A DNA stretch of 64,000 bases from Octopus sinensis (Eukaryota). Within the stretch, counting starts at the first letter, position 1; each line of letters starts with the position of its first letter. The stretch is from NCBI RefSeq assembly GCF_006345805.1, contig NW_021832714.1:40005-104004 (forward strand), in the 5' to 3' direction. Under the pieces are notes generated by a model, which was given only the letters and a program-made list of their open reading frames with translations, did no database searches and was not told where the DNA came from. This document shows positions 50,384 through 51,065 of this stretch, in pieces. Position numbers and translations under genes: made by a program.

Positions 50384-50435
<52 letters not shown>

Positions 50436-50535
50436 CAGGGTGAATACTTGATAACTGTAAGCACCTGTATATGCCAGTTAGTGGTGTAGGTGATAGGGTA
50501 TATTTATCAAAAGAAAACAGGATGCAAAGGATTTA

Positions 50536-50622
50536 GCGGTACATATGTTTCTGGCTTTATTAGACGGTTTATACCAATGCATAATTGATGTAATATGTAT
50601 GTCAATAGCCTTCTTCAGCCGC
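50536..50622 (-). ncRNA. Type I hammerhead with 60-nt stem II (mirror copy)
   Basis: Reverse complement of 50907-50993. Confidence 0.8.
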
Positions 50623-50906
50623 GCACAATTACTACTCCAAGGACATGTATTACATTATAAGTTTGAGAAAAAGACGAGTTTCGTTGGGGATGCAAATCCT
50701 CATAGTCGCATACAGCAGAGCGAGACACCAAAACAAAAACAAAGCGTCCATACCGTTTTTCACTCGATATAGAATGAGGAGGTTGTTTGTTTTTGTTTTG
50801 GTGTCTCGCTCTGCTGTATGCGACTATGAGGATTTGCATCCCCAACGAAACTCGTCTTTTTCCCAAACTTATAATGTAATACATGTCCTTGGAGTAGTAA
50901 TTGTGC

Positions 50907-50993
50907 GCGGCTGAAGAAGGCTATTGACATACATATTACATCAATTATGCATTGGTATAAACCGTCTAATAAAGCCAGAAACATATGTACCGC
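50907..50993 (+). ncRNA. Type I hammerhead with 60-nt stem II
   Basis: GCGG-CTGAAGA-AGGCT-ATT-GAC..GTC-T-AAT-AA-AGCC-A-GAA-ACATATGT-A-CCGC; predicted cleavage after 50989. Confidence 0.8.
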
Positions 50994-51065
50994 TAAATCC
51001 TTTGCATCCTGTTTTTCTTTTGATATAATATATATATATATATATATATAACCCCTATCTCAATT

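Follow-up and report, generated by a model that had tools for sequence, protein, structure and literature searches.

For insertions of Penelope-like elements (PLEs), the parts of Craig et al. 2021 (PMC8557442) available to us describe a 5'-truncated copy in inverted orientation adjoining the 5' end and a tail of 30-40 bp at one end only. An insertion bias towards (TA)n is reported there for the Neptune, Hydra and Naiad clades, and Penelope-13_HM is listed in the supplement with an attached 5'-truncated inverted copy. For the Penelope elements of Adineta vaga the accessible text (PMC3846280) describes a head-to-head inverted pLTR that is 37 bp shorter, and the idea of self-priming as an origin of PLE inversions is also raised. 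The portions available for PAc, a Poseidon element of Anolis, report that both strands are nicked and extended in AT-rich DNA, that two internal RT start sites delimit the tail and that hammerhead cleavage depends on the element's protein, whereas insertion in vitro does not require the hammerhead (PMC11167929). Minimal PLE hammerheads occur, according to the available text of Cervera and De la Pena 2014 (PMC4209133), as pairs 100-700 bp apart on opposite strands and are tied to truncated PLEs; in vitro they showed no cleavage as monomers and low cleavage as dimers, and the type with a short palindromic stem III is reported to require the dimer. As tabulated in the accessible supplement of PMC8557442, many Hydra-clade hammerheads show stem II bordered on either side by an additional base, and nearly all families of this clade target (TA)n; two spike-moss PLE-X1 hammerheads in File S2 have long stem II regions of about 50 nt, and Naiad 'half cores' are listed alongside the PLE hammerheads. 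The Octopus vulgaris repeat paper counts PLEs, and the terms 'ribozyme' and 'palindrom' are absent from its main text as available (PMC13282606). By title and abstract we found no description of long-stem-II or octopus PLE hammerheads; work on PLE hammerhead variants may bear on the locus described here.

We analyzed a palindrome in a stretch of 64,000 nt of Octopus sinensis DNA (hereafter the window). It very probably arose when an endonuclease-bearing PLE with (TA)n as its target recently inserted its 3' end (the pseudo-LTR region); the inserted piece is non-coding.

Anatomy of the palindrome and model of its insertion

The features of the locus, with the basis of the assignment in brackets, are as follows.

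50383..50430, no strand: left flank, (TA)24, the inferred target microsatellite (repeat inspection)
50431..50785, minus strand: left copy, 355-nt 5'-truncated 3' end of the element, tail included (family contigs and arm alignment)
50431..50504, minus strand: one-sided tail of 74 nt, stopping 109 nt past the predicted cut site (homology to a solo copy)
50744..50785, minus strand: unpaired centre of 42 nt, additional 5' family sequence of the left copy (family contigs)
50785/50786: inversion junction, where the left copy meets the right copy
50786..51025, plus strand: right copy, inverted, 240 nt, 5' end 42 nt shorter, without tail (arm alignment)
51023..51143, no strand: right flank, (TA)n with interruptions

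Without gaps the inverted repeat comprises 50509-50743 and 50786-51020 (235 nt, 99% complementary, 42 nt between the arms), and with one gap allowed the arms extend to 50505-50743 and 50786-51025. We observed only two differences between them, a substitution (50666 is A, its mirror position 50863 is C) and a 1-nt indel, an extra T in a T-run of the right arm. The original prediction had claimed a young fold-back at 50431..51025 with arms of about 240 bp, one of them carrying an extension of about 74 bp before (TA)n, and all of this agrees with the alignment. Folded as RNA, 50431-51025 reached -455.5 kcal/mol (z -50.9), and none of 100 shuffles was as low.

What looks like a neutral spacer at the centre (50744-50785) belongs to the left copy, whose 5' end reaches further by this stretch. 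Because these 42 nt are family sequence, the palindrome is to be read as a 355-nt 5'-truncated copy on the minus strand that abuts, head to head, a 240-nt inverted copy on the plus strand, which is 5'-truncated as well. (TA)n borders the palindrome on both sides, the 74-nt tail is found on the left only, and any target-site duplication is masked by the flanking (TA)n. We thus observed the layout hallmarks of PLE insertions (5' truncation beside a second truncated copy in inverted orientation, a tail at one end, (TA)n left and right) together with a hallmark of the pLTR, a hammerhead core 109 nt from the end of the tail. The 167 nt upstream of the hammerhead core encode nothing recognizable, with no Pfam match for either of the two 101-aa frames, and no ORF was found inside the 355-nt left copy. 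The right (TA)n is interrupted by an 18-nt island (51050-51067) that has CCCTATC in common with the beginning of the tail; TA expansion may have split it off as the last trace of a tail start in the right arm.

Compared with the PLE insertions in the accessible parts of PMC8557442 and PMC3846280, the head-to-head inverted copy likewise falls short at the 5' end, by 42 nt compared to 37 bp there, and the one-sided tail and the microsatellite target are shared. In contrast to those insertions, the tail of 74 nt is about twice their 30-40 bp, and the palindrome has no ORF, no 15-bp overlap and no perfect palindrome at the junction. As the inverted, truncated layout is already known, we regard the 60-nt hammerhead insert described below and the 74-nt tail as modest departures, which make the locus somewhat unusual.

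Anatomy, family nature and recurrence are what we observed; from the anatomy and published PLE biochemistry we infer the following steps. The GIY-YIG endonuclease of the element would nick the (TA)n tract, and reverse transcription would begin at the tail end, some 109 nt downstream of where the ribozyme cuts, and halt after 355 nt at 50785. The 3' end of the new strand would then fold back across the 42-nt loop, copy itself for about 240 nt up to the tail boundary and be joined to the other (TA)n end, with the hammerheads as presumed passengers carried over from the parent element. We favour this snap-back copying of the first strand as the source of the second arm with moderate confidence, since the arms are near-identical although the family is diverse, and since the unpaired centres are short (12-42 nt) in the window's four clearest fold-backs, which argues against independent truncation. 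Two separate primings from both nicked strands are a possible, less favoured source of the second arm; this two-ended priming would be possible given that PAc nicks and extends both strands. Two-strand nicking and internal RT starts that bound the tail would, in any case, be elements that the mechanism offered here has in common with PAc, as far as the available text of PMC11167929 describes it. The short, consistent arm offsets bear on how PLE inversions arise.

Hammerhead motifs, long insert and predicted folding

Each copy contains a type I hammerhead motif, assigned by descriptor and core match, with the following parts.

50536..50622, minus strand: type I hammerhead motif of the left copy
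50618-50612, minus strand: CTGAAGA
50611-50552, minus strand: 60-nt insert
50548-50541, minus strand: ACATATGT, with the predicted cut after 50540
50907..50993, plus strand: type I hammerhead motif of the right copy
50907-50910, plus strand: GCGG
50911-50917, plus strand: CTGAAGA
50918-50977, plus strand: 60-nt insert
50978-50980, plus strand: GAA
50981-50988, plus strand: ACATATGT, with the predicted cut after 50989
50990-50993, plus strand: CCGC

Both motifs point outward, and ACATATGT forms the palindromic stem III that precedes the GUA cut triplet. The CUGANGA, GAAA and NUH core with stems I-III is present in both arms. We searched the window with a type I descriptor that demanded core, stem I and the base of stem II, and obtained 6 matches, both arms included, compared to a mean of 0.05 (maximum 1) in 100 block shuffles; the mirrored, outward-pointing hammerheads with palindromic stem III that had been proposed for the arms were thereby recovered. 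Rfam at gathering score returned no match across the whole window.

A 60-nt stem II had also been proposed. The length of 60 nt is correct, but a long helix was not found: stem II consists of a 4-bp GGCU/AGCC base and an irregular, weakly folding extension, and the insert folds at -8.5 kcal/mol (z -0.7), a value that 21% of 300 shuffles reached. With the family-majority alleles the energy is similar (-9.8 kcal/mol) and the interior pairs differently, so that a conserved long helix in the insert is unsupported. In both arms an extra A stands before GAAA and the G10.1-C11.1 pair next to G12 is absent; at this position 66-90% of the family depth has C. We rejected an intron in the insert by eye (no plausibly sized GT-AG pair), and likewise an ORF start, because its ATG opens a frame of 34 codons only, unlike PAc, whose ORF starts in stem II according to the available text. 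Each arm holds one more hammerhead-like motif (50826 on the plus and 50703 on the minus strand; CTATGAG...GAAAC TC GTC), which was rejected as well, since its core is short of one base and its GAAAC varies in 19-58% of the DNA-run depth (rows 50678 and 50681).

For the pairs of the hammerhead the computed probability is 0.000 when the whole fold-back is folded and <0.01 for a single arm, and in this folding model the hammerheads at 50536-50622 and 50907-50993 are probably inactive at this locus. Because they point outward, read-through RNA of either strand has the antisense arm made ahead of the sense ribozyme. Such RNA would be predicted to form a duplex of about 240 bp, with the ribozyme next to its complement and paired away, and the mirror arm cannot serve as dimer partner for the short palindromic stem III. 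Of the earlier expectation that transcription from either strand gives both a ribozyme and a long dsRNA, the dsRNA of read-through RNA is thus retained and the ribozyme is not.

In comparison with the hammerheads in the accessible text of PMC4209133, type I architecture, a 4-bp stem I, an extra base after A9, a small palindromic stem III and pairs on opposite strands are shared. Differences are the 60 nt between the cores, against helices of up to 7-8 bp there, and the A instead of C before GAAA in this copy, where the family majority has C. The Hydra-clade entries in the available Files S1 and S2 resemble the locus in that stem II is flanked in many families by an additional base left and right, stem III measures 8-10 nt, (TA)n is the target and, in several entries, the hammerhead lies about 100-180 nt from the 3' end. 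However, their listed stem II regions are short compared to 60 nt here, and the listed hammerhead of Hydra-1_Obim, from octopus, differs in sequence from that of the palindrome. We compared four short motifs of the window's hammerheads with the PMC8557442 supplement in its available form, whose line breaks could hide them, and obtained no match. The likeness to the Hydra clade thus appears to be one of hammerhead style only.

Family copies, other fold-backs and alternative origins

The palindrome sequence is present in part in 20 of 24 listed public runs, from 10 studies and 4 organisms. In all four runs compared, a left-copy query (50431-50790) recovered contigs (1331, 1053, 634 and 127), and as most of these contigs are 90-99% alike the family is a high-copy, divergent repeat. 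Contig coverage of the 42-nt centre resembles that of the adjoining arm; among 32 listed contig pieces (3130 more were obtained) 6 end at 50785, 3 of which continue there for another 43-61 letters. One contig of run X2 contains a different fold-back of the family, with its junction at 50674/50778. Loose contig ends were observed at 50514 in 87, 44, 16 and 5 contigs, TA-rich in the X1 consensus only; a fixed tail-less family end at this position is only partly supported. Of the 40 listed variant rows (52 in total) ten are located in the stem II insert, as against none in the catalytic core or stem I. The sole allele of the locus among them that is nearly absent from the family is the arm-specific one at 50666, so that both arms would derive from one subfamily template. 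None of the runs containing the sequence is recorded as RNA. Run X8, guessed to be RNA, provided 127 family contigs with substitution counts much as in the DNA runs; contigs, those of X8 included, are unable to reveal editing or locus-specific expression. A DNA pattern scan of metagenome contigs for the family motif returned no match.

Within the window we found further fold-backs and hammerhead-bearing segments.

48277-48666: older fold-back of an unrelated family with mirrored hammerheads at 48405 (minus) and 48456 (plus), (TA)n on both sides
16734-16901: fold-back between (TA)n, one-sided extension, 21-nt centre
16941-17307: fold-back between (TA)n, one-sided extension, 25-nt centre
28930-29162: weaker, older fold-back, 86-nt centre
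16386-16658: solo, non-inverted relative, TA-flanked, hammerhead at 16470 (plus) with a 59-nt insert
29583, plus strand: type I hammerhead, 60-nt insert, TA-flanked segment, unrelated as far as detectable
35400, minus strand: type I hammerhead, 46-nt insert, TA-flanked segment, unrelated as far as detectable
28336, plus strand: type I hammerhead, 27-nt insert, TA-flanked segment, unrelated as far as detectable

In the fold-back at 48277-48666 the arms are about 93% alike and the hammerhead inserts measure 15-16 nt; its centre is 12 nt long, and a tail of about 76-84 nt is present on one side. No hammerhead core was found in those at 16734-16901 and 16941-17307, and by BLAST the arm identity of the other fold-backs in the window is about 90-93%. 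The solo copy is homologous to the left copy through ribozyme and tail (z 6.7, none of 300 shuffles as high), with 111 nt from cut site to end compared to 109 nt in the left copy; five other hammerhead-bearing segments of the window showed no comparable similarity. (TA)n flanks are common to the palindrome, the other fold-backs and the solo relative. Long-insert hammerheads below the Rfam cut-offs are present in at least three mutually unrelated elements of the window, of which the one at 16470 is a relative and those at 29583 and 35400 are not detectably so. The insert of the hammerhead at 29583 folds as a long hairpin (z -1.7). Fold-back stubs are common in the window, and each forms a long hairpin by itself.

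Non-coding sequence, many copies, inverted arms and TA flanks would also fit a MITE-like, non-autonomous DNA element of the fold-back type, or a retrozyme, that moves as a whole palindrome. We consider such an element improbable: the ends are unequal because of the 74-nt tail and so do not form equal terminal inverted repeats, there is no fixed interior, as the centre is family sequence running on, the other family copy inverts at a different point, the related solo copy has no mirror, and the tandem hammerhead array of a retrozyme is absent. An assembly or chimeric-read artefact, with the mirror image of one copy created in silico or at the library stage, could account for the fact that the junction of this locus (50785/50743) is not among the contig joints of 4 runs (76-100% of each read), that the left-arm allele at 50666 is missing from 3 of the 4, and that no single run contained more than 0.52 of the sampled words; a young polymorphic insertion would, however, be expected to be missing from other individuals. 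The mirror ends at an internal element boundary with the flanks not mirrored, the arms show two differences, one independent contig of the same family is also inverted, and the layout recurs in unrelated families of the window at the lower arm identity of about 90-93%. With three more fold-backs in the window an artefact is very unlikely. Scarcely probable, finally, is a later DNA-level inversion of an older solo PLE fragment, by fork template switch or hairpin-capped break repair and independent of insertion: the arms resemble one another much more than they do the family majority and have minority alleles in common, but such alleles segregate in the family too (e.g. T at 50552, with about 10-34% of the depth), none of the 40 listed variant rows of 52 shows a private allele common to the arms, and the duplication is limited to the element.

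Relation to PLE coding sequences and further repeats of the window

The following line gives the element in the window to which we compared the palindrome.

about 17793-19667: broken RT + GIY-YIG element with a zinc-finger-like CxxCxxC linker, several frameshifts and stops, Neptune- or Nematis-like

No hammerhead was found downstream of it, and its 3' region showed no similarity to the left copy (z -0.4). A second, more decayed PLE-like RT fragment was observed at 61531-61945, and no Hydra ORF motif was found in the window. We further analyzed 79 metagenome loci that carry ORFs related to the RT + GIY-YIG element of the window. Seven of them carry 8 strict hammerhead matches compared to 0.25 in shuffles, and type I hammerheads lie 97, 180 and 716 nt past the ORF match. 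The inserts measure 10-22 nt, none of the 8 exceeding 22 nt in these loci, many of which hold little post-ORF DNA. Two antisense matches with inserts of 50-52 nt were rejected, as they fail the stem II test and occur near the shuffle rate (0.85); they came from a descriptor that misses the window's own motifs and gave 13 matches in 11 of the 79 loci. In two loci, L002 (58 and 3757) and L035 (33 and 4876), the same hammerhead is found on both sides of the ORF, and these repeats are direct pseudo-LTRs. No PLE proteins were confirmed in viral contigs. The 3' ends of Naiad_Obim and Naiad_Ovul, read by eye, do not contain the family of the palindrome. Nowhere in the data searched (contigs, window and the 79 metagenome loci) was a PLE coding sequence found linked to the family.

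As a single locus, a dead retrotransposon stub in an arrangement that has already been described, the palindrome is of little weight. A possible, rather doubtful reading is that it belongs to an undescribed PLE lineage with stem II extensions of 46-60 nt that are missed by standard models and tails of 74-85 nt, often inserted as snap-back palindromes, about four of them in this 64-kb window. If this were true, thousands of dated fold-backs genome-wide would allow a direct test of snap-back against two-ended priming, and wherever copies lie in introns or UTRs, single insertions would supply editing or small-RNA pathways with near-perfect dsRNA on a large scale.

Besides these elements, the window contains an inverted pair at 25062-25685 and 26948-27543 (about 600 nt, 93.6%), whose microsatellite-rich interior spans 1.26 kb. 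Degenerate hammerhead-like motifs lie in the pair at 25123 (minus) and 27482 (plus), and an extension of about 77-87 nt is present on one side only. A short motif of hammerhead-like type was also observed in short repeats between TA flanks, at 50199-50382, 2316-2508, 8894-9089, 9104-9302, 15998-16181 and 17351-17547. The repeat at 50199-50382 adjoins the palindrome on the left, on the strand of the right-arm hammerhead, and its motif core is intact (50265); the others have a CTGTAGA variant. A dispersed SINE-like repeat of about 240 nt occurs in many copies (51285-51488, 51771-52029, 56316-56828, 58854-59453 and others), some of them in tandem partial arrays, and a minisatellite at 42657-43568 consists of 19.5 copies of a 47-bp unit with 96% identity.
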